Assembly: GCA_903889905.1 (NCBI GenBank)
Contig: CAISZI010000048.1
Coordinates: 70,668 to 134,667, forward strand
Origin: Candidatus Wirthbacteria bacterium
Lineage (GTDB): Bacteria > Patescibacteriota > CG2-30-54-11
Length of the DNA: 64,000 nt
Direction of reading: 5' to 3'
Shown: piece by piece, positions 3,901 to 64,000 of the stretch
How positions within the stretch are numbered: position 1 is the first letter of the stretch
Layout of the letters: the number at the start of each line of letters is the position of its first letter
Position numbers and translations under genes: made by a program
Notes under the pieces: model-generated
Databases searched by the model: none
What the model was told of the DNA's origin: nothing
What the model saw: the letters and a program-made list of their open reading frames with translations, nothing else

Positions 3901-3979
3901 TGGTGGGCGGTATAGGACTCGAACCTATGACCTTCTGCACGTCAAGCAGACGCTCTAACCAACTGAGCTAACCGCCCCC
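3901..3979 (-). tRNA. tRNA-Val (anticodon GAC), CCA encoded
   Basis: Reverse complement reads GGGGGCGGTTAGCTCAGTTGGTTAGAGCG-TCTGC-TTGACGT-GCAGA-AGGTCATAGGTTCGAGTCCTATACCGCCCACCA. It has a 7-bp acceptor stem, GTTCGAGTC T-loop, and anticodon loop TTGACGT. Confidence 0.85.
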
Positions 3980-10460: not shown

Positions 10461-10602
10461 TTTTTTGCCTCGTATAAGCTTAACTTGTATCATTTTAGTA
10501 CTTAGTAAATTATTTTACAACTGCTTAACAACCAAGCCGTGGGCAATGGCTGTCAAATATGATAAATTATATTTTAGAAATGTTCCTACTGGAAATATTC
10601 CC

Positions 10603-48289: not shown

Positions 48290-48622
48290 TTACCGAATAA
48301 AATTACCGGACACGGACCGGCAAGCTTCCTCCAATTTCGCCTTTCGCTCAGTGCCATCTAGACTATCTGCAAATTGCTTGATCCGGCGCCGCACGTCATT
48401 CAGTCTTCGCTCAACCTCGCTGTGTCCTTTGGGATCATCAAACCCAAGTCCGGGCTTGAGTAATGTACGGTGACTATCGGCCACACTTTCTGCCATGACA
48501 AGCTCAACAAACAGGTTGTATTTGTCATCCTCGCCAATAAATCCTTCGTCAGACCTGGCAAGCAGCATTTCTATGACATCAAGAATTAGATGAACGGATG
48601 CATAGGTATTCCCAATTTCCAT
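48290..48622 (-). CDS. hypothetical cytoplasmic protein, co-oriented 15 nt upstream of the FGE-domain gene
   Basis: 110-aa acidic ORF, no motif recognised. Confidence 0.3.
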   Translation of the reverse strand: MEIGNTYASVHLILDVIEMLLARSDEGFIGEDDKYNLFVELVMAESVADSHRTLLKPGLGFDDPKGHSEVERRLNDVRRRIKQFADSLDGTERKAKLEEACRSVSGNFIR

Positions 48623-48870
48623 TGATTCACCTGCTAATTTATTTTGTATTCCATACTCTTGATATTAAAGAACAATGGGAAAAATAACAAATATATTTAG
48701 TAACGACTCTCAACAATCCATGATCATCATGTTTCATGAGTGCCATTAATATTGACTTCGCATTGAGAATGCCGGCATTTTTGGTGAACCTGGTTAAACG
48801 TGATACAACTTTTGGTGACGCAATTCACCCTGGCCAATCTCGGCTTAATCTAACGAAACTAGGACAAAAA

Positions 48871-49725
48871 ATGAACAGAGACATCACCCACAAAGTCATC
48901 CTGATTACCGGCGCCACGGATGGCATGGGCCTGGAAACGGCACGGGCACTGGCGAAGCACAATCCGAGACTTGTTCTGGTTGGGCGAAATGCCACCAAAG
49001 GTCAGCGAGTGGTGGAGGAGCTCAAACAAGAATCCGGAAACCAGGCGATCGAATTTATGCAAGCCGACCTTTCGGCCCAACAAGACATCCGGGAATTGGT
49101 CAAGACATTCAAATCCAAATACGACCGTCTGGATGTTCTGATCAATAACGCCGGGGCTTATATCCCCGTCAAACAACTTTCGGCTGATGGCTTTGAGATG
49201 ACCTTTGCGCTCAATCACCTGGGGTACTTCCTCCTGACCAATCTGCTCCTGGACGAGCTGACCCGCTCCGCTCCCTCCAGAATTATCAATATCTCATCGG
49301 CTGCGCACGCCAGTGCGAGATTCGATATCAATAATCTCAACAGCGAAGGCAAATACTCCCCCTGGAACGCCTACGCCACCTCCAAACTGGAGAATCTCTA
49401 CTTCACCTACGAACTGGCCGACAGGCTCAAGGGAACCGATGTCACGGTCAATGCCGTCCATCCGGGCCTGGTCAATTCCCAATTTGGCAAACAAGGCAGC
49501 GGCCCATTTCTGGCCATTTTCCGGCTTATGCAGAAATTCATCGGCAAAACAGCTGCCAATGGCGCCAAAACGAGTATTTATCTGGCGCTGGCTGATGAAG
49601 TTGAAGGAATAACGGGATCATATTTTGCCAATGAAAAAATGGCGCAGTCGAGTAAGGTGTCGCAGGATAGGGAGATGGGGAGGAAATTGTGGGAGATGTC
49701 GGAGAAGATGACGAGAATTAATTAA
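48871..49725 (+). CDS. SDR-family oxidoreductase (retinol dehydrogenase/WWOX-like classical SDR)
   Basis: Start at MNRDITHKVILITGATDGMG. NNAG, YxxxK (YATSK). The tracked ORF begins 135 nt earlier but lacks an RBS. Confidence 0.7.
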   Translation: MNRDITHKVILITGATDGMGLETARALAKHNPRLVLVGRNATKGQRVVEELKQESGNQAIEFMQADLSAQQDIRELVKTFKSKYDRLDVLINNAGAYIPVKQLSADGFEMTFALNHLGYFLLTNLLLDELTRSAPSRIINISSAAHASARFDINNLNSEGKYSPWNAYATSKLENLYFTYELADRLKGTDVTVNAVHPGLVNSQFGKQGSGPFLAIFRLMQKFIGKTAANGAKTSIYLALADEVEGITGSYFANEKMAQSSKVSQDREMGRKLWEMSEKMTRIN

Positions 49726-49738
49726 TAGGCGAATTAAC

Positions 49739-50188
49739 ATGACCGAAACAACCTCTCTCCTCGCCGGTGTTGCTGGTGAATACTTTGTCGCGGCAGAGTT
49801 ATCCAGGCGCGGGTTTATTGCCTCAATAACTCTGCGTAATACCAAAGGTGTTGATATCCTCTGTTCCAATCAAGACGCGTCAAAGACGATTGGAATCCAG
49901 GTAAAAACAAACCGGGGGAAGACCAGAAGTTGGATCCTGAAGCAAAAAGCTGAGGACTATATGGCTGATGACCTTTTCTATGTCTTTGTAAATCTAAATG
50001 ACGGAGAGGGGCACCCCGATTATTTTATTGTCCCCAGTAATGATGTTGCGAAGTATGTCAGAGAATCACATGCAAACTGGCTCGATAAGCCAGGAAAAAA
50101 AGGGCAGAAACACAACGACACCACGATGCGACAGTTTCTTGATCGTGATGAAAAATATCGAAACAAATGGGAACTACTGAATCTATAG
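49739..50188 (+). CDS. PD-(D/E)xK nuclease-fold protein (Hjc/NucS-like core), function unknown
   Basis: 149 aa. GEYFVAAEL…GVDILC…IQVKT fits the E…D…(E/Q)xK restriction-endonuclease-like motif order. Convergent with hsdR at the island edge. Confidence 0.35.
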   Translation: MTETTSLLAGVAGEYFVAAELSRRGFIASITLRNTKGVDILCSNQDASKTIGIQVKTNRGKTRSWILKQKAEDYMADDLFYVFVNLNDGEGHPDYFIVPSNDVAKYVRESHANWLDKPGKKGQKHNDTTMRQFLDRDEKYRNKWELLNL

Positions 50189-50206
50189 TCACTAGTGTTA
50201 AAAATC

Positions 50207-53200
50207 CTAAAACACACTCTTCCCATCCCCATAATACCCATCAAACACATGCGAGAAGATCGCCCCGCACTTCTCTTCGTAGAGTTTCTTGTCATAGATC
50301 GCCGGCAAGTGTTCGAGCGAGTCTTTAATTGCAACCTCAATTGATGCCCTGGCAAACTCTTTGGCTCTCCAATCAAGCACCAGAAGGTCTTTGAGCTTCT
50401 GAAGGAGCTCACGTGCTACCTTTTTGACATCTCCCTGCTCCTGCTTGTTGAGTTTTGGGTCTGGCTTGGTCAGGAGGTCAAAGATAGCCAGTTCTTCCTC
50501 GTCACTTAGCCCTTCCCTGACTGCTCTTTTTTCTTCCTCTTCCAGATCCGCGGCAAAGGTGACCAAGTCCTGGTAGATCTCCTCCAATGAATGGCTCCCC
50601 GCGTTGTATTCGGCGACCATGTCTTTGAATTTCTTCACCAAATCGATCCGGGTACGGTTCATCTCGAATAGATGATTCACTTTGCCTTCGAGCAGCTTCT
50701 GCAAGAGGTCAATGGCATGGCGTCTGCGGCCTTCCTCGAACTGCTTCGCGAGCTTGTCAAAGTCAATTTTGCTTAGATCCATGGGTTGGGGGGATGTAAT
50801 CGAATACCCTGTTGTCCCGATCGTGTCATCGAGAAGGCCATCTACCTTGCGGACGATGCTGGTGATATCGACATCCGGTCGACGGGATTGGATGTTCTCG
50901 GCAATGGTCAGATACAGCTTGACCCGGTCATAGTAGGCAGCTACCCTGCCATCTGGTAGAACAGCTTTATAGAGCTGGTAGCACCCCTGCGTCATCTCCA
51001 GATAGTCTTTGCGGGTCTGCTCTGAGCTCATCAGGGCTTCAGAGGCGTTGTTGACTAGTTTTAGAAGCTCAACACGCTCCTTCCCAAGCATCTCTGCCGC
51101 TTGGATGCCGAGCTTGGCACAGAATGTGTTCAGTTTATCGAATCGATCTTCCAATTCCGCCAGAATCTCGTCTTTTTCCTTGATCGGGGTATCCTCTCCA
51201 TCTCCTCCCTGGTCGGCACCATAGATTGCCAGAGCCTTCTGAAGATTCCTAAAGACACCGATGTAATCGACAATGATACCATTGGGTTTGGTCTTGAAGA
51301 CACGATTGGCCCGGGCGATGGTCTGCATCAAGGTATGGTTCTTCATAGGACGGTCAAGGTAGACCGTCGAACAGGACTGGGCATCAAAGCCAGTCATCCA
51401 CATGGCGCAGACAAAGGCAATTCGAAGAGGATGATCCGCATCTTTGAATTCTTCCGCCAAGTCTTCCTTGTTCATGCGATCCCGGTGGGGTTTGGCATCA
51501 ATGCCATACTTTCGGGCATCATCGATCTCGTTCTGGCCTTGGGAGACCACCACAGCCATGTCAGTTGATTCCATGAAGTTGATTTTCGTCTCCAATGTTT
51601 CCAGCTTCTCGTCCCTGGCGTAGTAGAGCTCTTTGCGCAGGTCCTTGATCTTGGCATCCCAGTACTTCTTGACCTTTTCGAACATGCGATAGGTGGTCAG
51701 TTTATCAATGCTGACGATCATAGCCTTGCCAGGATAGCCCCGCCCGACAATGTGATCCACGATATCGCTCGCAATTCGCTCCAGACGTTCATCCCGGGTA
51801 ATCAAGTGGTATTGCTTGGAAAAATACCGCTGGAGCTTCAATTCTTGCTCATCGCTGAGCTCCTCTTGCTCCAGTAATTCATCCAGTTTGTCCGTTAGCT
51901 CTTGCTCATCGAGCTGGAGCTCTGGAATACGATTTTCATAAAACAGTGGCACGGTGGCATTGTCATCCACAGATTGCTTGAAGTTATAAATACTGACGTA
52001 ATCTCCAAATGTCTCCCGTGTCTTTTCCTCTCCGGCACCTTTGATCAAAGGGGTGCCTGTAAAGGCAATGAAACTGGCATGGGGAAGGCCTTCGCGCATG
52101 TTCATGGCCAAGGTGTCGTATTGGGAACGGTGGGCTTCGTCAGCCATGACAATGATGTCATTGCGGTCAGATAGGAGATCCCGATCACGGAACTTGTGGA
52201 TCAAGGTAAAGACATAACGGTGATCCTCGTGCAAAAGCTTCTTCAGATGTTCTGCCGACTCAGCATGAACCTGATCTTCTGGTTCGGAGACGGCTCCCGC
52301 TCCAGCAAAATTTTGATAAATTTGTTTATCAAGCTCTTTACGGTCAGTTAGCACCACAAATGTCCAGTTACCCGGCAGCTTCCTGAAGATCTTCTGGGAG
52401 TAAAAGATCATGGAGTAGCTCTTGCCGCTCCCCTGCGTATGCCAAAAGACGCCGGCGGCACCCTGGCCCTTGGGTTTGGCTTTGAATACCTCGATGGCTT
52501 GATTAACACCCAAAAACTGATGATTCTTGGCGACAATCTTGGCGATGCCACCGCGAACTTCTACAAACAGGGTAAAATTCTCAATCAAATCCAATAGTCT
52601 CGTCTTGTCACAAGTTCCACGGATCATGGCTTCCAGGGATATCTGAGGCTTCTCGTCTTCCTTCTCTACCTTTTTCCACTGGCTGAAATGCTCCCAGGTG
52701 GCGCTGACGCTACCCATGCGGCTATCCGTACCATTGGTGAGGATGATCATGGCGTTATACCAAAACAGCTGCGGGATGGTGTCCTTGTAATCCCGGATAT
52801 TGTCATCGAAGGCTTCCTTGACTGAATGGCTGGCGGATTTGTTCTCAATAAGCACCAAAGGGATGCCATTCACATACCCGATCAGGTCCGTGCGACGGGT
52901 ATAGTACTTACCGGTGATCCAAAGCTGCGAAACCAACAAGAAGTCATTATCGTTGGGGTTATCCCAATCAATGACCCGCAGATTAACTGTTTGTTCTGTT
53001 CCTTGATCATCCTTGAAACTAACCTTGATGCCATCGTGGATGAGTGCGTAGACCTCTTGATTGGCCCTGGTTAGGCTTTTGGTACTGCGATCGAGGGTAA
53101 GTTGGGCTATGGCATCATTGAGGACTTGGGAAGGAACATCGGGGTTAAGTTTTGTCAGAGCTTCCCGAAGGCGCGGCAAGAGCAGAACATCAGCTCGGAT

Positions 53201-53326
53201 TTGGCGCCCAAGGATACTGGTTGGGCCGGGGATTTCGTCAAAACAATCGACATGGGACCATTTCATGCCTTGGAAGAGGTCAATGCCAGACTTCTCAACG
53301 AGGGAATCTTCGGAGAATGGGTTCAT
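50207..53326 (-). CDS. hsdR: type I restriction enzyme R (endonuclease/translocase) subunit
   Basis: Start at MNPFSED (ATGA overlap with the upstream gene). N-terminal PD-(D/E)xK, SF2 helicase motifs (HTQGSGKSYSM Walker A, DEAH-like MADEAHRSQ), long C-terminal helical domain. 1039 aa from this start. Confidence 0.85.
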   Translation of the reverse strand: MNPFSEDSLVEKSGIDLFQGMKWSHVDCFDEIPGPTSILGRQIRADVLLLPRLREALTKLNPDVPSQVLNDAIAQLTLDRSTKSLTRANQEVYALIHDGIKVSFKDDQGTEQTVNLRVIDWDNPNDNDFLLVSQLWITGKYYTRRTDLIGYVNGIPLVLIENKSASHSVKEAFDDNIRDYKDTIPQLFWYNAMIILTNGTDSRMGSVSATWEHFSQWKKVEKEDEKPQISLEAMIRGTCDKTRLLDLIENFTLFVEVRGGIAKIVAKNHQFLGVNQAIEVFKAKPKGQGAAGVFWHTQGSGKSYSMIFYSQKIFRKLPGNWTFVVLTDRKELDKQIYQNFAGAGAVSEPEDQVHAESAEHLKKLLHEDHRYVFTLIHKFRDRDLLSDRNDIIVMADEAHRSQYDTLAMNMREGLPHASFIAFTGTPLIKGAGEEKTRETFGDYVSIYNFKQSVDDNATVPLFYENRIPELQLDEQELTDKLDELLEQEELSDEQELKLQRYFSKQYHLITRDERLERIASDIVDHIVGRGYPGKAMIVSIDKLTTYRMFEKVKKYWDAKIKDLRKELYYARDEKLETLETKINFMESTDMAVVVSQGQNEIDDARKYGIDAKPHRDRMNKEDLAEEFKDADHPLRIAFVCAMWMTGFDAQSCSTVYLDRPMKNHTLMQTIARANRVFKTKPNGIIVDYIGVFRNLQKALAIYGADQGGDGEDTPIKEKDEILAELEDRFDKLNTFCAKLGIQAAEMLGKERVELLKLVNNASEALMSSEQTRKDYLEMTQGCYQLYKAVLPDGRVAAYYDRVKLYLTIAENIQSRRPDVDITSIVRKVDGLLDDTIGTTGYSITSPQPMDLSKIDFDKLAKQFEEGRRRHAIDLLQKLLEGKVNHLFEMNRTRIDLVKKFKDMVAEYNAGSHSLEEIYQDLVTFAADLEEEEKRAVREGLSDEEELAIFDLLTKPDPKLNKQEQGDVKKVARELLQKLKDLLVLDWRAKEFARASIEVAIKDSLEHLPAIYDKKLYEEKCGAIFSHVFDGYYGDGKSVF

Positions 53327-53330
53327 GTGA
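53281..53330 (-). repeat. copy A of a ~48-bp direct repeat comprising the hsdR start codon and first 16 codons
   Basis: 53281-53330 is about 84% identical to 54541-54590. Copy A is the authentic hsdR 5' end (MNPFSEDSLVEKSGID). Confidence 0.6.
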
Positions 53331-54453
53331 TGAAACTCAGATAATTTTCTTGATTCACGACCAGAAACGATGCCTCGGGATAGGTGGATTGAAAAATGGC
53401 AGGCGCTTTGGCCGTAGCCTTGCCCCACTTGAACTCGTACGCATCGATCTTGCCACCCTGCTCCTCGATCCAGTCGATCTCCTGCTGGTCATAGGTACGC
53501 CAGAAATAATTGCTCGTAGAAAAATGCTTATAGGTCTGATATTTGATACGCTCGCTAACGAGAAAATTTTCCCAGAGCGCACCCTGGTCATTGCGGGAAT
53601 CGAGCGGATTAAACATACTGATGACGGCATTACGCACACCATTGTCGTAGAAAAAGTATTTGGGCTTGGAGGTTAGTTCTTTGCGCAGGTTGCGGCTGAA
53701 ACCGCCGAGACGGTAGAGGGTGAATGTTTGCTCCAGGAGCCACAGGTAACGCCCAACTGTTTTGACATCGACCTCGAGCTTTTGAGCCAGCTCGGTATAG
53801 GATACCTCTGCCCCGACCTGAAAGGCGACAAGCTTGAGCAGCTTGACCAGAGTCTGCGGGCTACGGACCTGCTCCAGGGCAAATATATCCTTCAGCAGAT
53901 AAGATCCGACTAGATCGAGCAGGTACTCCTCGCGGTCTGCGTCAGTTTTTTGATTGAGCACGTCCGGATAGTTGCCATAGATGAGGTAGGAGGTCAGGGA
54001 CGATTTAAGTTCATAGGGATTGAACCTGGCAGAGAGCTCCATCTGGGACAGAGGATAGAGGTGCAGCGTTTTTTTGCGACCGACCAGCGGCTCACCAACC
54101 TGCCGGGCCAATTCAAAGGAGGACGATCCGGTAGCGATTACCCGGATGGGTTTGATCTGGTCCACGATGATCTTGAGCCCCATGCCGATATAGGGAACCA
54201 TCTGTGCCTCGTCAATCACAATGAGTTCATACCCCGCACAGAATTCCCTGATCCGGTCAAAGTCCTGTGAACCCAACACTTCCCGTACCTGAATATTGTC
54301 TCCAGACACGAGCAGATATTTCCATTTCGTGGTACTCAAGTACCGCTCGATCAGCGTGGTCTTGCCAACCCGACGGGGACCAAAGAGCAAAAGTACTCGA
54401 TTTGGCTCAAGATAGGATTCCAGATCCTGACAGTAGCGGGGTACGTATTCCAT
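53323..54453 (-). CDS. AAA-family ATPase with C-terminal DUF4143 domain
   Basis: 376 aa. Walker A GPRRVGKTT, Walker B VIDEAQ, conserved DUF4143-type C-terminal region. Stop overlaps the hsdR ATG (ATGA). Confidence 0.7.
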   Translation of the reverse strand: MEYVPRYCQDLESYLEPNRVLLLFGPRRVGKTTLIERYLSTTKWKYLLVSGDNIQVREVLGSQDFDRIREFCAGYELIVIDEAQMVPYIGMGLKIIVDQIKPIRVIATGSSSFELARQVGEPLVGRKKTLHLYPLSQMELSARFNPYELKSSLTSYLIYGNYPDVLNQKTDADREEYLLDLVGSYLLKDIFALEQVRSPQTLVKLLKLVAFQVGAEVSYTELAQKLEVDVKTVGRYLWLLEQTFTLYRLGGFSRNLRKELTSKPKYFFYDNGVRNAVISMFNPLDSRNDQGALWENFLVSERIKYQTYKHFSTSNYFWRTYDQQEIDWIEEQGGKIDAYEFKWGKATAKAPAIFQSTYPEASFLVVNQENYLSFIT

Positions 54454-54489
54454 ATTTTTAGCTCAATTTAAGGATTCGTGTTCCTCAAA

Positions 54490-54518
54490 ATTATACCAAA
54501 ACGTGGATTTAGCGTCAA
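54490..54518 (-). promoter_or_regulatory. sigma70-type promoter TTGACG-N17-TATAAT driving the DUF4143 ATPase gene
   Basis: Minus-strand GTTGACGctaaatccacgttttggTATAATttt. The -10 lies ~37 nt upstream of the ATG at 54453. Confidence 0.45.
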
Positions 54519-54540
54519 CTTACTTAGTATTCAGTCAAGG

Positions 54541-54590
54541 AAATGCCGAATTGTTCGACGAGGTAATCTTCGGAGAATTGGTTCATCGTG
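54541..54590 (-). repeat. copy B of the hsdR 5'-end repeat (remnant start MNQFSEDYLVEQFGIS then stop)
   Basis: Minus strand reads ATGAACCAATTCTCCGAAGATTACCTCGTCGAACAATTCGGCATTTCCTTGACTGAATACTAA. This mirrors the hsdR N-terminus. Its ATG overlaps the toxin stop as ATGA, as at the true hsdR junction. Confidence 0.6.
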
Positions 54591-54957
54591 GATACACGCC
54601 TGTTGCTAAAGTCTTCAGAAAATCATCAATTCGTTGCTGAGACTCGCATTCCTGCTGGCCATGCATATAAATCTCGATGAAAACAATTTTTGCAGCGATC
54701 ACCCCAAAGGCAAACACCAGTCTCATCTTGCTTGAACCTTTGAGGCTGCGGACCATGAGGCGGGTCTTGATAATCAATAACTGTCTGGCCGTATCACGAT
54801 GGAGAATATCGTACCGATTATTGTGGTCAAAATCGACACCAACGATAAATTTACGGAAATTATCCAGATCCTGCGTCAGCGAGGCGCATTTTTTGGATAA
54901 TTTTTTCAGATCACGATCAAAAGCCGGCAGTGACTCGAACTCAAATCTCGTCGTCAT
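54583..54957 (-). CDS. RelE/ParE-superfamily toxin (Panacea-associated toxin, PanT)
   Basis: 124 aa. FxFxxxFxRDLKKLSKK N-terminus and …KMRLVFAF…IEIYMHGQQ C-terminal region typical of RelE/ParE/HigB. 17-nt overlap with the upstream antitoxin gene. Confidence 0.5.
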   Translation of the reverse strand: MTTRFEFESLPAFDRDLKKLSKKCASLTQDLDNFRKFIVGVDFDHNNRYDILHRDTARQLLIIKTRLMVRSLKGSSKMRLVFAFGVIAAKIVFIEIYMHGQQECESQQRIDDFLKTLATGVYPR

Positions 54958-55684
54958 ACTGCCTCACCGAGTAGGGATCATTGCGATAGAAAACACTTTC
55001 GTAGGAAATTTCCTCGCCGTCGTCGTGCGCCAGCCAGGGGACATCGCCATGCGAGTAGTCACTCAATTCCTTCGCCGATTTGTCTGCAAGTTGGGTCAGC
55101 ACACGATCAATCAGATCGAGCTCACGACCACTCAGTTTGGTCAAGTCAGCCACAGCGCGAGGCAGGAATTTGCGCTGGTCAAACATAAAATATTTGCTTT
55201 TGACTTCCTCCATCTCACCGTCCTGCTTCATTTGCTCAATCACCTTGATAAACTCTTTTGGGGTGGGACCATGAAGATTTTTGATATAGGTGAGGCCCAT
55301 GAGCTGTTCTTCGTATTTTTCGTAGTAGTCAAAATCGATGAAGTACAGCAATTTGTACAAAACTGTGAGACCCACGTTGGGTTTGGCGCCCACCTTGCCC
55401 AGGATATAGAGCAGGACCTGTTTGAATTTGTCCAGATGCTGCTGGGGGATATCGATGCGCATGGTCGAAGGAACGCTGGCAGGCGAAGTAGCGGCTGCCA
55501 GCGAAAAAATCTGCTCCAGTTTTTCACGTTCGGCGAGGGTCAGCGGACGCTTGCCTTGTTCAATTTTGACCAAAGTCGGACGGGAGACACCGAGCCGCGT
55601 GGCCAATTCTTGCTGCGACATGTGATATTGCTGGCGTAGTGAATGGATTTCGATGGTGGTTGGGGTAGTCATTGGAGTATCCAC
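54941..55684 (-). CDS. XRE-HTH plus Panacea (DUF4065, SocA-like) domain antitoxin
   Basis: 247 aa. HTH LRQQYHMSQQELATRLGVSRPTLVKIEQGKR, then a DUF4065-type domain (VLYKLLYFIDFDYYEKYEEQLMGLTYIKNLHGP). Confidence 0.6.
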   Translation of the reverse strand: MDTPMTTPTTIEIHSLRQQYHMSQQELATRLGVSRPTLVKIEQGKRPLTLAEREKLEQIFSLAAATSPASVPSTMRIDIPQQHLDKFKQVLLYILGKVGAKPNVGLTVLYKLLYFIDFDYYEKYEEQLMGLTYIKNLHGPTPKEFIKVIEQMKQDGEMEEVKSKYFMFDQRKFLPRAVADLTKLSGRELDLIDRVLTQLADKSAKELSDYSHGDVPWLAHDDGEEISYESVFYRNDPYSVRQYDDEI

Positions 55685-55718
55685 ATATTCATATTGATGA
55701 CACTATTTTTGTGAAATA

Positions 55719-55748
55719 ACAATACATGGATAGCGAAACAATGTCAAT
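55719..55748 (-). promoter_or_regulatory. candidate promoter TTGACA-N18-TATTGT for the PanA-toxin pair
   Basis: Minus strand cattGACAttgtttcgctatccatgTATTGTtatt in the 77-bp hsdS-panA spacer. Confidence 0.3.
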
Positions 55749-55761
55749 GTTTACAAATATT

Positions 55762-56901
55762 TTACAATAATTTTACAGAGACCTCTCCACTCATCAATCT
55801 TGGCAATAACAAATTCCTCGTTATTCTAAAATTTTGGCTCTGCAAGTGAAGCTTCTGAATCAAGTCAAACATTGGCCTGACAAGTTTTGAAAATCGATCC
55901 AGACAAATAACCGGAGGTTGCGAGAGCAAGTATTGGTTGAAGCAACTTTCCTGCACGCGTTGGCGTCCAGACGCCCCCGTCATGCTCTTTATTGCATGTT
56001 TTCGAAATTCGTCACTACGAGCCAATAAATATACATACTCAGGTGTAAGTGAATGTGATCGCATAACAATATATTCTGTCGATCCAAAAGCCACCGCTTT
56101 CTCGTCAGGCAGAAATTGCACAAAACCCGTTTTACCATTTTCCAGACAGGGTGTTATCCTCGCAAGTAGTGTGTCTCTATTTTGAAATTTAGCACCGCTA
56201 TTGCCTGTTCGAGATTCAACATCGGTGATTATTATTGAATCCGTTGAAAGACATCCCATTGGGACAAACGCCTTTTCTCCATCACGGGGAACAGATACTC
56301 TTGGGTTAAAATCAACACATTCAACCACTTTCTTCACCTCCCACCCCTCCGGCACCATCCCCAATTCCGTCCCCGAATCCACCATTTTGACCTTCTCATG
56401 CCCCGGGAACCGGAACTCCACAAACCACTCCCGATAGAGCCGCCTCGCCATTTCTTCCAGGATCTGGATGCGGCGGGTGTTGTTTTCGATTAGGTCGTCG
56501 TAAGCGGAAAGAATGGAGGCGATTTTCTTTTGAACATGCAATACTGGAACATCGATCTCAATCGTCGACAAATGATTTCGATTTAATGTTGGTACTCCTG
56601 CGCCTGCGTTGAAACGAGAAAAATCTAATCCAATCAATTTAAAATATACATATCTAGGGTCATTGCCCTTGAAATCCTTAACCCAAAGAGACGTATTATG
56701 GGGCCAGTACGGATCTTTAACATATTGAACCGTTCCTAACGATCCGCTGCGTCCAATTACAACGCCAGGGGCATCCGCTTTAAATTCATGATGATACCCG
56801 ATTATCGAAGTGGATCCGACCACTGGATAAATACCATCATTCATATTGATTCTTGTAAGATCGAAACCCCTTTGTAGAGTAATGAAATCATCAAGTCTCA
56901 T
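55762..56901 (-). CDS. hsdS: type I restriction-modification specificity subunit (two TRDs)
   Basis: 379 aa. Two target-recognition domains separated by conserved helical repeats (…LEEMARRLYREWFVEFRFPGHE…, C-terminal …NLLLPRLMSGEV). Confidence 0.8.
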   Translation of the reverse strand: MRLDDFITLQRGFDLTRINMNDGIYPVVGSTSIIGYHHEFKADAPGVVIGRSGSLGTVQYVKDPYWPHNTSLWVKDFKGNDPRYVYFKLIGLDFSRFNAGAGVPTLNRNHLSTIEIDVPVLHVQKKIASILSAYDDLIENNTRRIQILEEMARRLYREWFVEFRFPGHEKVKMVDSGTELGMVPEGWEVKKVVECVDFNPRVSVPRDGEKAFVPMGCLSTDSIIITDVESRTGNSGAKFQNRDTLLARITPCLENGKTGFVQFLPDEKAVAFGSTEYIVMRSHSLTPEYVYLLARSDEFRKHAIKSMTGASGRQRVQESCFNQYLLSQPPVICLDRFSKLVRPMFDLIQKLHLQSQNFRITRNLLLPRLMSGEVSVKLL

Positions 56902-57706
56902 CCGGATTCTCCATTTTCTTTAACTTTTCACCCTCAATTCTCTTCCCCGCTTTTTGGACACTATCGGGCGTCGGCAGCTGTTCGGGCATGGTGCCGCCTA
57001 GTTCTTTGATCGTCTCCCGCACCTTTTTGCCGACTTGCAGGTGGGTCAGATTGGCTTTGTCCTGACCTTTGATGCCTTCTCTCCTGAGCTTGGCTTCTGC
57101 CTGCGTCGCCCGGAATAAGTTAGCGGCCAGCTCTTCACTGCCCATGTGGTCGAGGATTTGCTGGTTTTTTTTGAGTTGTTTGCGTGCATGAATGTCTTTT
57201 TGGGACAACCCGCCGTATAGCCCCATGTAGCCGTAATTTTGAAACGTCCCAAAACTGACCACACCGGCATCGTCAGCAGCCTTGGCCAGTTTTTTGTTGT
57301 GCGTTTTCATTTCTTCGCGTAGCAAAACCCGTTTGTGATCCTCGATCATCTGATCCGCCACTTCTTGCCGGTGCGTCTGGATGGCAAAGTAAGTTTGCCC
57401 CAGCGCGACGATTTCTTTGGACGGATCGGCATTCTGAACGATCAGATAGCAGGCATAGCGAGACAACCGGATATCTTCGACCTGCCGCCTGGCTCCTGAG
57501 CCAATTTCGACCATATCGTGCACATCCTCGAAATGGTCTGCAATTGCTTGACCACTGTTTTGGCAGGCAATCTTGGCTTTATCAATAACTGGCACGAAGA
57601 AACGATACTCGGAATACCCCAAAATTTTGGAAAGTTCCCTCGCTGACCAGTATTCGGACTGATATTCATTGACCTTCTTGATCGCATCGAACTGGTTGCT
57701 GGTCAT
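56891..57706 (-). CDS. dinD: DNA-damage-inducible protein D (DinD; BRO-N/KilA-N-like)
   Basis: 271 aa. N-terminus …EYWSARELSKILGYSEYRFFVPVIDKAKIAC…SRYACYLIVQNADPSKEIVALGQTYFAIQTHRQE matches DinD. Sits between hsdM and hsdS with 11-nt and 4-nt junctions. Confidence 0.65.
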   Translation of the reverse strand: MTSNQFDAIKKVNEYQSEYWSARELSKILGYSEYRFFVPVIDKAKIACQNSGQAIADHFEDVHDMVEIGSGARRQVEDIRLSRYACYLIVQNADPSKEIVALGQTYFAIQTHRQEVADQMIEDHKRVLLREEMKTHNKKLAKAADDAGVVSFGTFQNYGYMGLYGGLSQKDIHARKQLKKNQQILDHMGSEELAANLFRATQAEAKLRREGIKGQDKANLTHLQVGKKVRETIKELGGTMPEQLPTPDSVQKAGKRIEGEKLKKMENPDET

Positions 57707-57709
57707 CTA

Positions 57710-59266
57710 TTACTCCTTGTGATTAGTAAAAATTAGCGCAACGTTCTTACTGATGGTTTCTTCCAGCCCATTCGCCTCAGTAGTCAGAAGCTCGAATTCA
57801 TCGTTAAGAGTCCTCAACTTGGCCTTGAAATCCTCATCACTGACTACTTCGCCATCGGCAATTCCAACATATAGCCCTGGATTTAGGGACCAACCTTGCG
57901 CCACGATTTCCGTAGCCGTCGCTACTTTGCAAAGCCCCTTCACATCCCGATATTTGCCGTCCGGAAAATTGGCTTTAAGCAAAGCATTATCAGAGTATTC
58001 CGGCACTTTCCCCCGATACATCCGGACAATGTCTGACAAAAACTGCAAATGTTCTTCCCCAAACTCCCGATGCGCTCGATCTACCTGCACGAAGTGATGC
58101 CGGGCATCGAGAAATAGAACATTGTCTTTGCGGTCCTGTGGCTTGCCCTTGTCCAAAAACCACAAAGTACAAGGCAACGTCACCGTATCAAAAAAATTGG
58201 GAGATATAGCTACCATCACATCTACATGCCCAGCTTCGATTAACTTCTGGCGGATCGCCATCTCACTATTGCGCGCATCGCTGGCAGAATTGGCCATGAC
58301 GAACCCGGCACGCCCAGTCTGATTGAGCGGGCTATAGAACTGCTGTATCCATAGGTAATTGGCATTGGACGTGGACGGCATCCCAAATGGAAACCGTTGC
58401 CGATCATCCTTCATCCGGTCCTTGTCCGCACCTTCATTATTGAATGGCGGATTAGCCATCACGAAGTCGCAGCGCCCGACGGCATGATGAGGATCTTCAT
58501 AGTAGCTGTTGCCGGTACGAATATCGCCATTGAGCCCATGGATGGCCAGGTTCATCTTAGCAAGGTTGGTATTGGAGGTCGTCAGCTCCTGCCCAATGAT
58601 CGAAAGCTCCGAGATAGGATTGTGCTGATGCCGTGCAACGAAGTCCGCACTTTGGACAAACATGCCACCCGATCCGCAAGCCGGGTCATAAATCACCCCA
58701 TGGTAGGGCTCGATAATCTCGACAATCAGCTTGACCAAAGATGTCGGGGTAAAGAACTCCCCACCCTTTTCCCCAGACTTCTTGTGAAACTTGCCCAGGA
58801 AGTACTCATAGATCTTGCCAAAGACATCGCCTTCAACCTCAGTCATCTCCGTGCTGTTAAACGTTTTGAGCAAGTTTAGTAGCACCTTCTTGTCTATCCG
58901 GGCATATCCGCGAGGTAAAACGCCCTTCAAATCAGTATTTTCTTTCTCTATCTCCTCCATCGCGTGGTCTACTGCCTTGGCAACATCATCACCATCCGTG
59001 AGGTTGATTAAATAAGAATAACGGGCCTCGGGAGTCAAATAGATCGCCCGACGCGCCAAAAAGTCCGCCTTGCCCACGGTTCGACGGCTGGAAGTGGCTT
59101 GCGAGCTTAGTTCCTGCTCAATCCGGGTAAATTTGACGTCTGCATATTTCAAAAAAATAAGACCCAAAACCGGCATCGTGTATTCCGATGGTTTCAGGTC
59201 CGCATTTCCCCACAATTGCTCAGCCGATTCCCACAAAGTGGCTTCGAGTTGTTTGTTATAGGTCAT
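57710..59266 (-). CDS. hsdM: type I restriction-modification N6-adenine DNA methyltransferase subunit
   Basis: 518 aa. N-terminal HsdM_N, SAM motif [10 protein letters not shown], catalytic NPPF. Confidence 0.85.
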
Positions 59267-59290
59267 TCATTTCCTCGTAATTAAATCACT

Positions 59291-59343
59291 ACCGCCATTA
59301 TAGACTTCTGCATTAACCGCAGCAAATGTATACAAACCAGCCG
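59291..59343 (-). promoter_or_regulatory. hsdM promoter (TTGCTG-N17-TATAAT) inside a ~55-bp module repeated upstream of rhuM
   Basis: Minus strand GGTTTGTATACATTTGCTGCGGTTAATGCAGAAGTCTATAATGGCGGTAGTG. The -10 is ~30 nt upstream of the hsdM ATG. About 84% identical to 61795-61851. Confidence 0.5.
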
Positions 59344-59371
59344 ATATTGTCAATATTATTGTTGACAATAT
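59344..59371 (+). promoter_or_regulatory. perfect 10-bp inverted repeat (ATATTGTCAA-N8-TTGACAATAT) overlapping a TTGACA -35 box upstream of mmpA; candidate operator
   Basis: Lies between divergent hsdM and mmpA. A nearby half-site-like direct repeat AATATTATTG occurs at 59352 and 59388. Confidence 0.4.
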
Positions 59372-59416
59372 ACAATATATAGTAAATAATATTATTGACT
59401 AATTCAAAGGAATCCC

Positions 59417-59881
59417 ATGAACACCCGCACCACCCAACTCGCCCGCACCCAGCTTGACGCCACGCTCAAGCCTCTAACCAAACTTGCCTCGACTTCCCGC
59501 CCACCCAAAGGCTGGATCCGCGCCATCCGCAATGCCCTGGGCATGAGTGGCGAGCAATTGGCGCGTCGTCTCGGCCTGACCAAACAGCGCATCGGCCGCA
59601 TCGAACAAGACGAAGCTGGGGATGGCATCACCTTCAAAACCATGCGCCATGTCGCCGAGGCGCTGGATTGTCATTTTGTCTATGCACTCATCCCCCGCAC
59701 CAGCCTCGAACAGTCCGTCCGAGACCAGGCTGCCAAAGTTGCTGCCAAACGACTGGCGCAAGTAAGCCACTCAATGATGCTCGAGAACCAACAGCTAACT
59801 GATGCAAATCAAACAAAAGCCTTGCAGTCCGAGGTCGAACGACTTATTGCCTCTTTGCCACGGACACTCTGGGATGACTAA
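59417..59881 (+). CDS. mobile mystery protein A (HTH-XRE family, TIGR02612-like)
   Basis: 154 aa. PKGWIRAIRNALGMSGEQLARRLGLTKQRIGRIEQDE…ITFKTMRHVAEALDCHFVYALIPRTSLE matches the mobile-mystery-protein-A pattern. Confidence 0.6.
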   Translation: MNTRTTQLARTQLDATLKPLTKLASTSRPPKGWIRAIRNALGMSGEQLARRLGLTKQRIGRIEQDEAGDGITFKTMRHVAEALDCHFVYALIPRTSLEQSVRDQAAKVAAKRLAQVSHSMMLENQQLTDANQTKALQSEVERLIASLPRTLWDD

Positions 59882-60458
59882 ATCAAATTCCTTCGGCACC
59901 ACCCCGATATCGCCGGATGAGCTGGACGGACTCAAACTGACCCATATCACTACAACGGAACAGCTCAATCGCTTCGAACAGGACAACATCACTGAGGCCA
60001 TGGACTGGCTCTCACGCCGTAAACCAACCAAGATATTGAACGAATCCTTTCTCAAATCCCTGCACCAGCATATGTTTGGGCTGGTGTGGAAATGGGCCGG
60101 AAAATTCCGCGCCACCGACAAAAATATTGGCATTCCGTGGCAATACATCGCGGTAGAAGTCCGCAAATTATGTGACGATACGCAATTTCAGATCGACCAT
60201 CAATCCTACTCACCCGATGAGATCGCTGCGCGCTTTCATCACCGCCTGGTACAGATCCATCCATTTCCAAACGGTAATGGCCGCCATAGCCGACTGATAA
60301 CAGACATTCTGCTGCAAAATGTATTACAGAAGCCGCCTTTCACCTGGGGCGGTGCAGCACTGCGTGACGCCGACGATCCTCGGCGTCAATATATTGGTGC
60401 GCTGCAAATGGCGGACAAGGGAGACATGGAAGCGCTGATGAAATTCGTGCGGTCCTGA
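59874..60458 (+). CDS. mobile mystery protein B (Fic-domain protein, TIGR02613-like)
   Basis: Start MTKSNS overlaps the mmpA stop by 8 nt. Fic motif HPFPNGNGRHSRL. ~194 aa. Confidence 0.65.
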   Translation: MTKSNSFGTTPISPDELDGLKLTHITTTEQLNRFEQDNITEAMDWLSRRKPTKILNESFLKSLHQHMFGLVWKWAGKFRATDKNIGIPWQYIAVEVRKLCDDTQFQIDHQSYSPDEIAARFHHRLVQIHPFPNGNGRHSRLITDILLQNVLQKPPFTWGGAALRDADDPRRQYIGALQMADKGDMEALMKFVRS

Positions 60459-60491
60459 GAAACAAGAAAAAACCATTTCCCGCGTTCTTTC

Positions 60492-61769
60492 CTATCTCTT
60501 GAGCATCATCATCACCAACCCAATCATCCTCTCCTTGTCCACCGGTTTGCTCTCGGCAATCAGCAGTGTCAGTGCGGTCAGGGCTTCGGGTGTAATCCGG
60601 GTCATGTCCAGCAGCCGCGCCCGTAGCAATAACCAGACAAAGGCAAACGCACCCGAGCGCTTGTTGCCATCGAATTCGATGGAATCAAAATCAGGATTAT
60701 GCAATTTCTCCCATAGCCCCAAAAACTAGATCGTGCCGGATTTGTATTGGTAGATGACCAGGCCTTGTTGGGGGGTATTCTTTGGCATGGTTACTTCTTC
60801 TCGGCTTTAGTGATTGGAGTCTTGAGGTATTTCTGGGCGACTCGGTCAAAATCCGACTCAAATGATCTATCCTGATCGATTCTGAACTCGTCGTATTCCT
60901 TCTCGGCTAGTTGCTTGGCGACGTCCGATGAAATCTTGCCGGAATCGGCCAATATCTCATAATCATTGAATTGCAAAAATGCGTCCAGCCTGATAGCCCA
61001 ATCTTTCATGGTCATGGTCTTGTGGCGTTCGGCCTGGGATTCGGCGTAATACGGAAACATCGGTTTTGAGGATTTTTCCTTTGGGACTGTTCTTCCAAGT
61101 TGTCAGGCCCATGTGCGGCCTGGAACTACTCGCACGTGAGGCGACGATCTCGGCGGCAGTGTGACCAGTGATGGCCCAGTGCAATTTGTTCTGGACGGTT
61201 TGGTAGAATTGGTGGGTGATGTCGGCCTTGGGGTCATAATCAATACTGCATTGCGCGTAGATATCGGTGATTTTTTGATAAAACCGCCGCTCCGACGCCC
61301 GGATTTCACGAATTCGTTCGAGTAACTGATCAAAGTAATCCTTGCCAAAGAAGTTGCCGTTTTTGAGACGCTCGTCGTCAAGGACAAAGCCCTTGATGAT
61401 AAATTCCCGAAGCGTTGTGGTTGCCCAGATGCGAAATTGAGTCGCTTTTTGGGAATTGACACGATAACCGACGGAAATGATGGCGTCGAGGTTGTAAAAA
61501 TTGGGTTCCCTCTCAACCATTCTCTCGCCTTCTTTTTGAACTATTCGAATTTTTCGAATAGTTGCCGCTTCATCTAGCTCGCCGCTCGCAAAAATCTCCT
61601 GGAGATGGTAGTTCACCGTATTAACTTCCACATCAAACAATTCAGCCATGGCTTTTTGGGTCAGCCAGACAGTTTCGTTTTGAACCAACACCTCCATTTT
61701 CACGTCGCCGTCGGGTGTCGTGTAGAGAAGAAATTGTGAAGATTGCGTCACGAGTTCTTTTTTTGCCAT
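60492..61769 (-). pseudogene. rhuM: disrupted rhuM-doc (RhuM/Fic-DOC) fusion gene carrying at least two frame changes
   Basis: The 61769-60963 frame encodes the RhuM N-terminal ~230 aa (…NLDAIISVGYRVNSQKATQFRIWATTTL…). The RhuM C-terminus (KDWAIRLDAFLQFNDYEILADSGKISSDVAKQLAEKEYDEF) continues in another frame (61060-60791). A Doc/Fic core remnant (IEFDGNKRSGAFAFVWLLL…) lies in a third frame (60722-60492). Confidence 0.5.
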
Positions 61770-61794
61770 AGGTCCCTCTGGTTATTTTATCCGC

Positions 61795-61851
61795 ACTGCC
61801 GTCATTATAAACTTCCGCACTTACCCCAGCAAATGTAAACAAACCGCTCGG
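61795..61851 (-). promoter_or_regulatory. rhuM promoter (TTGCTG-N17-TATAAT); second copy of the module found upstream of hsdM
   Basis: Minus strand CGGTTTGTTTACATTTGCTGGGGTAAGTGCGGAAGTTTATAATGACGGCAGTG. The -10 is ~35 nt upstream of the rhuM ATG at 61769. Confidence 0.5.
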
Positions 61852-62120
61852 CTAAAGAATCGGGCAAAAAAACACCCAACCAGGGTGGTTCAAAATGACT
61901 TCTTCGGCAATAGCCACAAGCCGATTCGATCTAAGCTCACGGTCCAAGACGAGCTCCGCGAGTCGAATGGCTGGGCCACTTGGTTTAGAACCAGAAATGA
62001 GACATTTGGGACAGTATAAAAAAGGGTGTCTCAATTTGTGAGTAAGCAAGCAAGTAAGTTGTCTTATCGGAAGTTTAATGGTATTTTATTAGTATCGCCA
62101 AACTCCAATTGAGGTAGTCT

Positions 62121-63212
62121 TTGTATACTCCCAAATTCACCATTACCACATCTATTGCCCAGGCATTGATGCGGATAGAAGCACACAAACAAGCGATAAG
62201 CGACCTGCCTATCACGCCGGATGTCCTGCTCCATCTGCGGGAAACCGCGCGTCTTGCAACGACTCATTATTCGACTGCGATTGAAGGTAATGACCTGGAA
62301 GAAGTAGAGGTTAAAAAAGTTATCCAGGGATCATCCAACATTCAGGGAAAAGAACGTGACACCGCAGAAGTCAAAGGCTATTATGCCGCACTCCAGAGAG
62401 TAGAACGACTCGCTGGAAAAAAATACCCTACCGAAAAGGATATCCAGACTATCCATGCACTCGTGATCGGTGGTGGCAGAAACCAGGTGAAACCTACACT
62501 CTATCGGACAGAACAGAACGTCATCAAAGACAGTCGATCCGGGACAATAGTCTACCTGCCACCCGAGGAAAAAGACGTTCCCCAGCTTATGGAGGATCTT
62601 GTTCTCTGGATAAAAAGCAGTTTGTACGAGCAGATCCCTCTACCACTCCGTGCTGGCATCGCCCATTATCAGTACGTCACGATCCACCCCTATCTGGATG
62701 GTAATGGCAGAACCGCCCGCCTGCTCACTACACTCATCGCTCATCAAGGCGGATATGATTTAAAAGGTATCTTTTCTGTGGAGGAATACTATGTGCAGAG
62801 CCTCCAACAATACTACGATGCCCTCTCACTCGGACTTTCCCATAATTATTACTTCGGCAGGCATGAAGCAGATATCACTCCCTGGCTAGAATACTTCTGC
62901 GCTGGAATGGCGGAAAGCTTTGATAAAATTCATCGTCAGGCGCAGAAGGCTGCAAAGGCAGGGCAACAGGATTTCTCACCCATTCTCCGTGACTTGGATC
63001 CGAGGCAACGAAAAGTACTGAGTCTATTCGTTCACAGTACCAGGATCACGACACGAGAGATCGCCACTTGTCTGAATATTTCGACCCGCGCTGCCAGTGC
63101 ATGGTGTCAAAAATGGGTCAATGACGGATTCCTTCGGATCATGAATCCAGCCAAAAGGAATCGTTCGTATGCACTGGGAAAGCAGTACGAAAGTTTGGTT
63201 GTTTATAGCTGA
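62121..63212 (+). CDS. Fic-family protein (Fic/DOC adenylyltransferase-like with C-terminal wHTH)
   Basis: 363 aa. Fic motif HPYLDGNGRTARLL. N-terminal inhibitory-helix-like segment (…TAIEGN…). C-terminal winged-helix region. Confidence 0.75.
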   Translation: MYTPKFTITTSIAQALMRIEAHKQAISDLPITPDVLLHLRETARLATTHYSTAIEGNDLEEVEVKKVIQGSSNIQGKERDTAEVKGYYAALQRVERLAGKKYPTEKDIQTIHALVIGGGRNQVKPTLYRTEQNVIKDSRSGTIVYLPPEEKDVPQLMEDLVLWIKSSLYEQIPLPLRAGIAHYQYVTIHPYLDGNGRTARLLTTLIAHQGGYDLKGIFSVEEYYVQSLQQYYDALSLGLSHNYYFGRHEADITPWLEYFCAGMAESFDKIHRQAQKAAKAGQQDFSPILRDLDPRQRKVLSLFVHSTRITTREIATCLNISTRAASAWCQKWVNDGFLRIMNPAKRNRSYALGKQYESLVVYS

Positions 63213-63218
63213 GATCTG

Positions 63219-64000
63219 ATGATAACCATCACTGACGAATACCTTGATCTTTATGCCTCTCTCTTTCGTGGTCGAGAGGAAACTTACGCACGCCATTGGG
63301 AAAAAAATGGGAGAAGCGGATACAGTCCTGCCTACGATCTGGACTGGTCAAAATTCATGGCGTTCAAAGCTCAGGGTGGATCGCTGAAAGACTTCCCAGA
63401 CAAAACACCTTTGCCGCTATCTCGGCTAGTGATCAAAAATCACCTCCTGGGAAAGCATGCGATCGGTATCTATCCACTCCTCGAGAATAATGAATCGTAT
63501 TTTATTGCTGCCGATTTCGATGGGCAGGATTGGATAGGCGAAAGTCGAGAACTCCTCAATTCATGCAAAGCCTATGGGCTGCCAGCGTATCTTGAGAGAT
63601 CACGATCGGGAGGAGGGGCGCATATCTGGTTATTTTTCGCGAATTCTTATCCAGCTGCAAAAAGCAGGCAGATCATCTTTGCACTCTTACGAAAAGTCTT
63701 GCACGTTTCTGAATTTGATAAGGAAATCAGTTTTGACCGGGTGTTTCCAAACCAGGATTATCATTCCGGCAAGGGGTTCGGTAACCTCATCGCCCTGCCG
63801 CTGAACGGAATTTCAGCAGACCAAGGAAACAGTGTTTTTCTGGATCCAGAAAACCTCACACCCTATACAGATCAATGGGAATACCTTTCGCATGTGGAAC
63901 GGATAAGTTCCGACACTCTCGACCGAGTGCTTGATCGAATTGCTGGTTATAGCCCCTTCAAAACGACAGTACGTGGAACGACAGAACCTCAAGCGTCTCT
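63219..64000 (+). CDS. 5' portion of a TOTE-like conflict-system protein: archaeo-eukaryotic primase (AEP) domain (gene runs off the window)
   Basis: Open frame from ATG 63219 to the window end (260 aa, no stop). Sequence …LFRGREETYARHWEKNGRSGYSPAY…FIAADFDGQDW…AYLERSRSGGGAHIWLFF…FDRVFPNQD…GFGNLIALPLNG closely follows the conserved blocks of TOTE AEP-domain proteins. Confidence 0.55.
   Translation, partial: MITITDEYLDLYASLFRGREETYARHWEKNGRSGYSPAYDLDWSKFMAFKAQGGSLKDFPDKTPLPLSRLVIKNHLLGKHAIGIYPLLENNESYFIAADFDGQDWIGESRELLNSCKAYGLPAYLERSRSGGGAHIWLFFANSYPAAKSRQIIFALLRKVLHVSEFDKEISFDRVFPNQDYHSGKGFGNLIALPLNGISADQGNSVFLDPENLTPYTDQWEYLSHVERISSDTLDRVLDRIAGYSPFKTTVRGTTEPQAS

Follow-up and report, generated by a model that had tools for sequence, protein, structure and literature searches.

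We analysed a stretch of 64,000 nucleotides (nt) of a Candidatus Wirthbacteria contig (CAISZI010000048.1), called the window throughout, and in particular the gene cluster at its right end. The region from ~49.7 kb to beyond 64 kb is very probably a horizontally acquired defence island that was assembled piecemeal by recombination and not delivered as one integrase-borne element. Its core would be an apparently intact type I restriction-modification system, hsdM-dinD-hsdS ... hsdR on the minus strand, which would methylate self DNA and cut unmodified incoming DNA. Two self-contained modules appear to have entered the gap between hsdS and hsdR, namely the PanAT toxin-antitoxin pair and a cassette, complete from promoter to stop codon, that encodes an AAA_14 ATPase fused to a DUF4143 (PD-(D/E)xK) domain. 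The flanks would be formed by a PD-(D/E)xK nuclease gene (orf149) on the left and, on the right, by MmpA/MmpB, a dead rhuM gene with a doc remnant, and a Fic protein with an AEP-superfamily 2 (SF2) helicase. Together these genes may provide layered immunity, in which restriction acts first and the toxin, ATPase and Fic modules serve as a back-up or in abortive infection.

Every sizeable open reading frame (ORF) of positions 49739-64000 was searched with hidden Markov models (HMMs) from Pfam, NCBIfam, PADLOC and PHROGs. The type I operon and the genes embedded in it comprise the following features.

50207-53326, minus strand: hsdR (TIGR00348, 489.2 bits against a cut-off of 284.55; PADLOC REase_I, 6.6e-181, positions 6-999 of 1029)
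53321-54519, minus strand: DUF4143 cassette, with promoter, 5′ untranslated region and gene
53323-54453, minus strand: gene of an ATPase with AAA_14 and DUF4143 domains (PADLOC PDC-S01, 1.2e-147)
54524-54586, minus strand: relic of the hsdR 5′ end, a 20-codon ORF reading MNQFSEDYLVEQFGISLTEY and then stop (direct repeat D2)
54583-54957, minus strand: panT, predicted RelE/ParE-fold toxin of 124 amino acids (aa), from structure prediction
54941-55684, minus strand: panA, antitoxin with HTH_3 and Panacea (SocA-like) domains (PF13274, 1.5e-17; PF01381, 1e-10)
55762-56901, minus strand: hsdS, specificity subunit (PADLOC Specificity_I, 9.5e-85, model positions 9-359 of 369)
56891-57706, minus strand: dinD (NF008573, 385.8 bits against a cut-off of 242; PDC-S13, 4.3e-115)
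57710-59266, minus strand: hsdM, methylase subunit (HsdM_N and N6_Mtase, 7e-82; PADLOC MTase_I, 1.9e-215)
59287-59338, minus strand: promoter module TTGCTG-17-TATAAT upstream of hsdM (direct repeat D1)

The three subunit genes hsdM, hsdS and hsdR are full length relative to the models. HsdR combines the domains HSDR_N, SWI2_SNF2, T1R_D3 and T1RH-like_C and thus has both the N-terminal nuclease and the SF2 motor of a type I endonuclease. HsdM is an N6-adenine methylase that scores under the TIGR00497 equivalog cut-off (102 against 242.75 bits), and it is accompanied by an HsdS of two halves, the first of which is the only one recognised by Pfam Methylase_S. Four genes of the same orientation (dinD, panA, panT and the DUF4143 ATPase gene) are interleaved with these subunit genes. 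PDC-S01 lies between hsdS and hsdR, and PDC-S13, the dinD gene, lies between hsdM (3-nt gap) and hsdS (11-nt overlap), all on the minus strand, which is the embedding pattern of these PADLOC families. A further match of DinD (2.9e-95) is to a PADLOC 'Specificity_I' model of 717 aa that represents a DinD-HsdS fusion; it covers the 266 N-terminal residues of this model. The existence of such fusions suggests that DinD-like proteins act with the type I complex and not independently.

The limits of the DUF4143 cassette can be read by comparison with a stand-alone copy. The cassette has its own promoter, TTGACG-17-TGgTATAAT at 54518-54490, with a score of 11/12. From 54519 to 53321 it shows 82% DNA identity over 1199 nt to positions 9935-11133 of the metagenome contig L141, and the shared stretch begins exactly at the -35 box and extends 2 nt beyond the stop codon. 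The relatives of the gene in L141-L146 occur solo between DHH and peptidase M20 genes; on plasmids, too, homologues stand on their own, in a variety of contexts. TGAAC is common to the cassette end (..CAC[C/A]TGAAC) and the hsdR start (ATGAAC..) at the right junction, and a synonymous ACC-to-ACA difference at the cassette end provides the A of the hsdR ATG, so that this ATG overlaps the DUF4143 stop codon as ATGA. The relic ORF is joined to panT likewise, by an ATGA that combines its own ATG with the panT stop codon. The relic and the hsdR start constitute direct repeat D2 (54542-54586 and 53282-53326), the copies of which flank the cassette and are 82% identical over 45 nt; the bit score is 46, compared with a maximum of 31 from shuffled sequence, by which the significance of repeats was judged. 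Two further metagenome contexts that were checked for the hsdR-relic pattern were uninformative.

The other embedded module, PanAT, shows 78% DNA identity over 1008 nt (window 55622 to 54616) to the groundwater metagenome contigs L128-L132, and in L128 the relative lies between folC-like and ParB genes with no restriction operon. Because the homology to L128 ends ~10 codons before the toxin stop codon, the tail of PanT represents local sequence. The Panacea (DUF4065) domain of PanA scores above the cut-off (PF13274, 64.9 bits against 25.7). The gene has an alternative ATG at 55672 and is preceded by a promoter-like TTGACA-17-TATTGT at 55747-55719. PanT belongs to a small family, of which 38 proteins were found, and has no Pfam match. 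Its structure model (predicted local distance difference test, pLDDT, 86.8) supports the prediction of a RelE/ParE-fold toxin, although the Foldseek comparison on its own was not significant. Taken with the 17-nt overlap of its gene with the Panacea gene, the predicted fold is consistent with the PanA/PanT pattern, an antitoxin gene with an adjacent bicistronic gene of putative toxin fold. The known partners of Panacea antitoxins include RelE-superfamily toxins, namely MqsR-like proteins and ParE (Kurata et al. 2022, PMC8832971). As in those systems (PMC8832971), an antitoxin with an N-terminal helix-turn-helix (HTH) and a Panacea domain is followed by an overlapping toxin gene. Unlike them, the toxin here comes from a small family without a Pfam model, the pair is embedded in a type I operon, and the last ~10 residues of the toxin are local. 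A 320-aa ORF antisense to panA (54677-55639, plus strand) was discarded as a shadow ORF, as the Pfam domains sit on the minus-strand frame.

Judged by sequence comparison, PanAT and the DUF4143 cassette are demonstrably mobile modules, with relatives of 78% and 82% DNA identity, respectively, that stand alone at unrelated loci. Four groundwater metagenome samples (ERZ909569, JGI 3300014060, ERZ17912254 and ERZ27293362; L128-L132 and L141-L146) contain, on separate contigs, the closest relatives both of PanAT (86% protein identity) and of the DUF4143 ATPase (87%). This co-occurrence hints at a single donor organism or a common gene pool.

Insertion of the DUF4143 cassette would have left the old hsdR start as the 20-codon relic and would have recreated an ATGA overlap at the working hsdR. 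From the junctions, we infer as the most likely route that a segment containing DUF4143 and hsdR recombined in through one homologous crossover in hsdR and one illegitimate junction at the TGAAC microhomology. A more specific proposal is that the hsdR start is a reusable landing site, with promoter-to-stop cassettes moving between unrelated type I loci via the conserved first ~45 nt of hsdR. We regard this proposal as distinctly doubtful. If it were true, embedding would be directed capture and not passive build-up in a genomic sink, with the relic start region and the rebuilt ATGA overlap as its footprint.

The embedding of genes in type I, BREX, DISARM and Hma systems has been surveyed by Payne et al. 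(2024, bioRxiv 10.1101/2024.01.29.577857) under the term 'guilt-by-embedding', and the PADLOC families PDC-S01, S04, S05 and S13 were defined from this pattern as candidates. How embedding comes about is left open in that study, which refers to the idea of a 'genomic sink' (bioRxiv 10.1101/2024.01.29.577857). The embedded systems that have been tested include PrrC (prrC in EcoprrI) and TgvAB (Vibrio VPI-2) (PMC11411939). The operon described here resembles these cases in that extra genes of the same orientation lie between hsdM, hsdS and hsdR. Moreover, it shares embedded families with them, the PDC-S01 DUF4143 ATPase and the PDC-S13 DinD, and has PDC-S04 (MmpB) and PDC-S05 (RhuM) nearby. It differs in that a single operon has received three separate insertions and that the scars are visible, namely the exact limits of the cassette, the relic of an hsdR start and the ATGA coupling that was rebuilt. 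Defence islands and embedding in type I operons have been amply described before, which makes this island an ordinary one. It is valuable as a worked example, in which the limits of the moved DNA can be read for two embedded modules against stand-alone copies. The insertion scars are unusually legible, and one junction shows that the coupling to hsdR was kept while the old start was left as a relic. Therefore, the mechanism of embedding becomes testable by a survey of hsdR-proximal cassettes.

The acquisition of the block is indicated by its composition, for which the first 48 kb of the window served as the reference. The clearest signal is the tetranucleotide correlation to that reference in 2-kb windows, which is 0.84±0.04 in the left part and falls to 0.38-0.75 from ~49 kb on (z = -2.5 to -12), a drop that lasts to the window end. 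A Markov model of host against island places the change point between ~48.3 and 49.7 kb. At the level of genes, we compared the island with the 43 genes to its left. Island genes have lower leave-one-out codon-usage scores (p=0.003), and their median GC content is 0.493 against 0.517 (p=0.0035). PADLOC matches in the 43 ORFs on the left are generic similarities to helicases (RecQ, UvrD) and methylases only, and the defence genes are thus concentrated in the island. Because the foreign signature is still strong in the last 2-kb window, the right border lies beyond base 64000. The proposal in the initial annotation of an acquired composite island is supported by the tetranucleotide break, the codon score and the relatives of the modules at unrelated loci.

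Several observations weigh against this interpretation. The GC content is nearly equal to the host value, and the GC content at third codon positions (GC3) does not differ between the island and the left genes. The left border is resolved only to 48.3-49.7 kb. As the Markov change point may fall anywhere in this interval, the status of an SDR gene at 48736-49725 (plus strand) is ambiguous; its codon usage is host-like and its 4-mers are weakly island-like. The right border and the sequence beyond 64000 are outside the window, and an integrase may lie there. A scan of genome contigs with the flanking SDR protein yielded no close host relative; the best match had 50% identity, Chloroflexota and others were at the top, and no synteny was found. 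Consequently, no empty site was seen, and composition is the sole evidence for acquisition. Furthermore, the D2 copies differ at 8 of 45 positions, which excludes a recent simple duplication or a fresh target duplication, and the sequence of events around the hsdR relic is one that we infer.

Alternatively, the whole block could be the left part of one integrative element (a genomic island, an integrative conjugative or mobilizable element, or a satellite), the integrase and attachment (att) site of which would lie past 64000 and which the AEP-helicase would replicate. AEP primase-helicases often serve the replication of mobile elements, the foreign tetranucleotide signature reaches the last base of the window, and the source contig extends to 135 kb, so more island may follow. 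However, the family searches found no integrase or transposase among the ORFs of 49.7-64 kb, in agreement with the initial annotation, and the left edge has neither an att-like repeat in the repeat search of the window nor a transfer RNA gene, the sole one of the window being at 3901-3977. The part of the island inside the window thus shows none of the hallmarks of an integrative element, that is, an integrase or transposase together with att repeats or a transfer RNA target. The neighbourhoods of related AEP genes also speak against a single element. A metagenome scan with the AEP fragment of the window as the query gave 36 loci, and Pfam was run on 109 ORFs around 14 related AEP genes. Among the families listed (25 of 107), we found Fic (4), AbiEii (3), RhuM (2), PIF1 (2), serine recombinase (2) and SAVED (1). 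A serine recombinase near 2 of the 14 loci would fit a mobile element, but the recurrent neighbours in this list are Fic, AbiEii, RhuM and SAVED and not integrases. AEP relatives are essentially absent from IMG/VR viral contigs, with no exact match and only one weak relative. In addition, GC3 varies among the modules of the block (0.42-0.63), and these have relatives of their own elsewhere. We therefore consider a single integrative element rather unlikely and piecemeal assembly the better reading of the block.

A vertically inherited core locus, in which the type I system and its neighbours are native, would fit GC and GC3 values near those of the host, but it is very improbable given that the tetranucleotide correlation falls by up to 12 standard deviations, that the cassettes have relatives of 78-82% DNA identity at other loci in other organisms, and that pseudogenes and duplicated promoter and start sequences indicate recent turnover. 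Equally hard to credit is a chimeric assembly of a host contig and foreign DNA, with the join near 49-50 kb: the contig is assembled from a metagenome, its composition changes abruptly, short contigs of other samples stop at 49997 and begin at 61973, and the orf149/hsdR junction (50188-50207) is without independent cover, but independent contigs of 1.3-1.8 kb cover 48712-49997 and 61973-63724 with 100% identity to the window, and the former, which is present in three other samples, spans the composition change and the SDR/orf149 junction and so argues against a chimeric join at the break.

The remaining features of the island flank the type I operon.

49739-50188, plus strand: orf149, small PD-(D/E)xK-fold nuclease-like protein of 149 aa (AlphaFold 2 model and Foldseek)
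59417-59881, plus strand: mmpA, HTH protein, putative antitoxin and regulator (TIGR02612, 180.8 bits against a cut-off of 122.6)
59874-60458, plus strand: mmpB, Fic-domain protein with HPFPNGNGRHSR (TIGR02613, 247.8 bits against 124.4; PDC-S04, 5.3e-22)
60459-60790, minus strand: decayed stretch, a 20-codon ORF (60726-60788) and then the 76-aa 'doc' ORF (60492-60722)
60791-61769, minus strand: rhuM pseudogene, N part 60963-61769 and C part 60791-61060 in different frames (PF13310, 3.4e-82)
61794-61845, minus strand: promoter module of the hsdM type, second copy (direct repeat D1), preceding rhuM
62121-63212, plus strand: class II Fic protein with a C-terminal HTH, SoFic-like (PADLOC SoFic, 6.4e-53, full length)
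63219 to beyond 64000, plus strand: 5′ part of a gene for an AEP (primase-polymerase), cut by the window end (PF22548, 7.3e-78; PADLOC PrimPol, 1.7e-65)

The gene names of the initial annotation proved largely right, with HMM family matches for most genes and structure prediction for orf149 and the toxin. Of the 14 conflict-system or mobile-element genes that it counted, 12 are apparently intact and two are decayed, rhuM being a pseudogene and 'doc' a truncated remnant. The statement that almost all junctions are overlaps of 4-17 nt was an overstatement, as overlaps occur at only four of the 13 junctions: hsdR/DUF4143 (4 nt), panA/panT (17 nt), dinD/hsdS (11 nt) and mmpA/mmpB (8 nt). The other nine consist of five gaps of 2-18 nt and four of 77-351 nt.

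The first of two little-studied candidate units that the island contributes is MmpA/MmpB, which may be a Fic toxin-antitoxin of class I. The respective NCBIfam cut-offs are exceeded by both proteins, and their genes are adjacent and overlapping. The motif scan found no internal inhibitory motif in MmpB, and MmpA has SMMLEN. Among 81 MmpA homologues, the motif (S/T)MxLExQ is conserved at S/T119 (91%), M120 (98%), L122 (100%), E123 (100%) and Q125 (96%), and (S/T)-M-x-L-E-x-Q is the most conserved part of MmpA outside the HTH. The sixth position of the canonical (S/T)xxxE(G/N) motif is G or N in just 31% of these homologues. This pattern of sequence conservation suggests that MmpA/MmpB may form a toxin-antitoxin pair of Fic class I, with the inhibitory glutamate coming from MmpA. 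Class I modules of this kind, VbhT/VbhA and FicT/FicA, were reportedly described by Engel et al. in 2012. The pair resembles VbhT/VbhA and FicT/FicA in having a Fic motif without an internal inhibitory motif in MmpB and (S/T)xxxE on the upstream MmpA. It differs in that MmpA has an HTH, in that only 31% of the MmpA homologues have G or N at the sixth position, and in that the Fic motif of MmpB carries N instead of D/E. A near-perfect palindrome, TAGTAAATAATATTATTGACTA, lies at 59380-59401 over a promoter-like mmpA site in the divergent region between hsdM and mmpA, and may be a candidate operator for MmpA. Four proteins (P0282 of 1366 aa, P0283 of 1083 aa, P0284 and P0285) contain 5-14 stretches in tandem that resemble the HTH part of MmpA (residues ~12-98), an unusual repeat architecture.

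In the adjacent stretch, annotated initially as 'rhuM-doc', neither gene is whole. Positions 1-167 and 189-249 of PF13310 fall in two frames of rhuM, so no single intact ORF spans the domain. A tblastn comparison with the intact RhuM of L109 shows a deletion of residues ~246-263 (~18 codons) and a frame change. The 'doc' ORF aligns at 52% identity with the final ~60 residues of RhuM/Fic/DOC proteins, starting at DGNKR, and corresponds to the C-terminal third of a Doc-type domain. It reads ..IEFDGNKR.., which lacks the catalytic His of HxFxDGNKR, and it has no Pfam Fic match; the complete Fic fold with HxFx(D/E)GN(G/K)R that defines a Doc/Fic toxin is thus not present. The pseudogene and the remnant are decay products typical of a gene sink. 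The dead rhuM carries a copy of the hsdM promoter; the two copies of this module, repeat D1, are 85% identical over 52 nt (bit score 59 against the shuffled maximum of 31). A 61-nt piece of the decayed stretch (60667-60727) recurs upstream of the Fic gene in L106, a locus without rhuM in between. An origin of the sequence FLGLWEKLHNPDF in KilA-N proteins was considered and dropped, with no Pfam match in its favour.

The second candidate unit is the pair of the Fic protein and the primase-helicase. The Fic protein has the Fic motif HPYLDGNGRTAR and the inhibitory motif STAIEG. According to the comparison with the single-gene defence SoFic (Millman et al. 2022, bioRxiv 10.1101/2022.05.11.491447) and with class II Fic proteins, it is alike in its full-length PADLOC match, its Fic and (S/T)xxxE(G/N) motifs and its C-terminal HTH. 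It is unlike SoFic in its score, 57.6 bits, which is far below the cut-off of 550 of the SoFic equivalog NF046030, and in the tight coupling to an AEP-SF2 helicase, seen here and in at least six other lineages. The AEP fragment carries the AEP-TOTE domain (PF22548, 261.7 bits against a cut-off of 27), and its relatives are ~715 aa in length (one type 1130 aa) and combine AEP-TOTE, ResIII and Helicase_C. In L086/087, L090, L092/093/103, L106, L115/116 and L118, which represent at least six distinct lineages, the AEP gene is immediately preceded by a same-strand Fic gene, with gaps of 2-6 nt or an overlap of 4 nt. The Fic protein of L106 is 67% identical to that of the window, and all AEP-linked Fic proteins retain the active-site motif and the N-terminal inhibitory (S/T)xxxEG.

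TOTE stands for TPR, OB, TBP and Effector (Aravind et al. 2022, as cited in PMC12458937). The initial annotation described the AEP as TOTE-like, and this is correct for the domain, which belongs to PF22548 'AEP-TOTE'. Membership in TOTE is not shown, since the linked TPR, OB and TBP genes were not seen: none lies upstream of the AEP gene within the window, and TPR, TBP and cold-shock/OB are not among the 25 of 107 Pfam families listed near the 14 AEP genes. The one recurrent partner of the AEP is instead Fic, and the gene of the window is incomplete. A second and more modest reading is that the auto-inhibited Fic protein and the AEP-SF2 helicase form a free-standing two-gene conflict system distinct from canonical TOTE. 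The ~80 nt before the Fic start (62040-62120) are conserved with positions 790-866 of L106 and include the near-palindrome GGTAyTTTATyrGTAyC. This element could be a candidate operator for the C-terminal HTH of the Fic protein.

The leftmost gene, orf149, has no match in Pfam, NCBIfam or PADLOC and matches phrog_29029 (3.3e-19). An AlphaFold model built from 40 homologues (pLDDT 90.9) was compared by Foldseek with the PDB and matched I-Ssp6803I, Hjc, the SPARDA nuclease and EcoRV, with E values of 5e-5 to 1e-3 for I-Ssp6803I, Hjc and SPARDA. E14, D39 and Q54-V55-K56 are invariant across the 40 homologues. The protein thus has the fold, the conserved acidic residues and the lysine of a PD-(D/E)xK nuclease, and the structure prediction and invariant residues back the label of 'PD-(D/E)xK orphan' that it had been given. 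The closest structural match is a homing endonuclease. The family is highly conserved, with 64-79% identity among the best 120 of 2754 matches (P0001-P0120). Its named hosts include Candidatus Edwardsbacteria, Saccharibacteria and a Nanoarchaeota metagenome-assembled genome, and some members are mislabelled 'aspartate ammonia-lyase'. Three genomic contexts of homologues were examined (within L124-L140): two have the gene immediately behind a large DNA methyltransferase gene, and the third is a serine-recombinase element.

To the left of orf149, a 110-aa ORF without a family match (48290-48622, minus strand) and the SDR oxidoreductase gene both lie in the composition transition zone, and the island may start up to 1.4 kb farther to the left than orf149. 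In the host-like sequence 11 kb left of the island, the window encodes a 1039-aa UvrD-type helicase (35143-38262, minus strand) with an N-terminal DUF559/Vsr-like endonuclease domain and generic GajB-like PADLOC matches.

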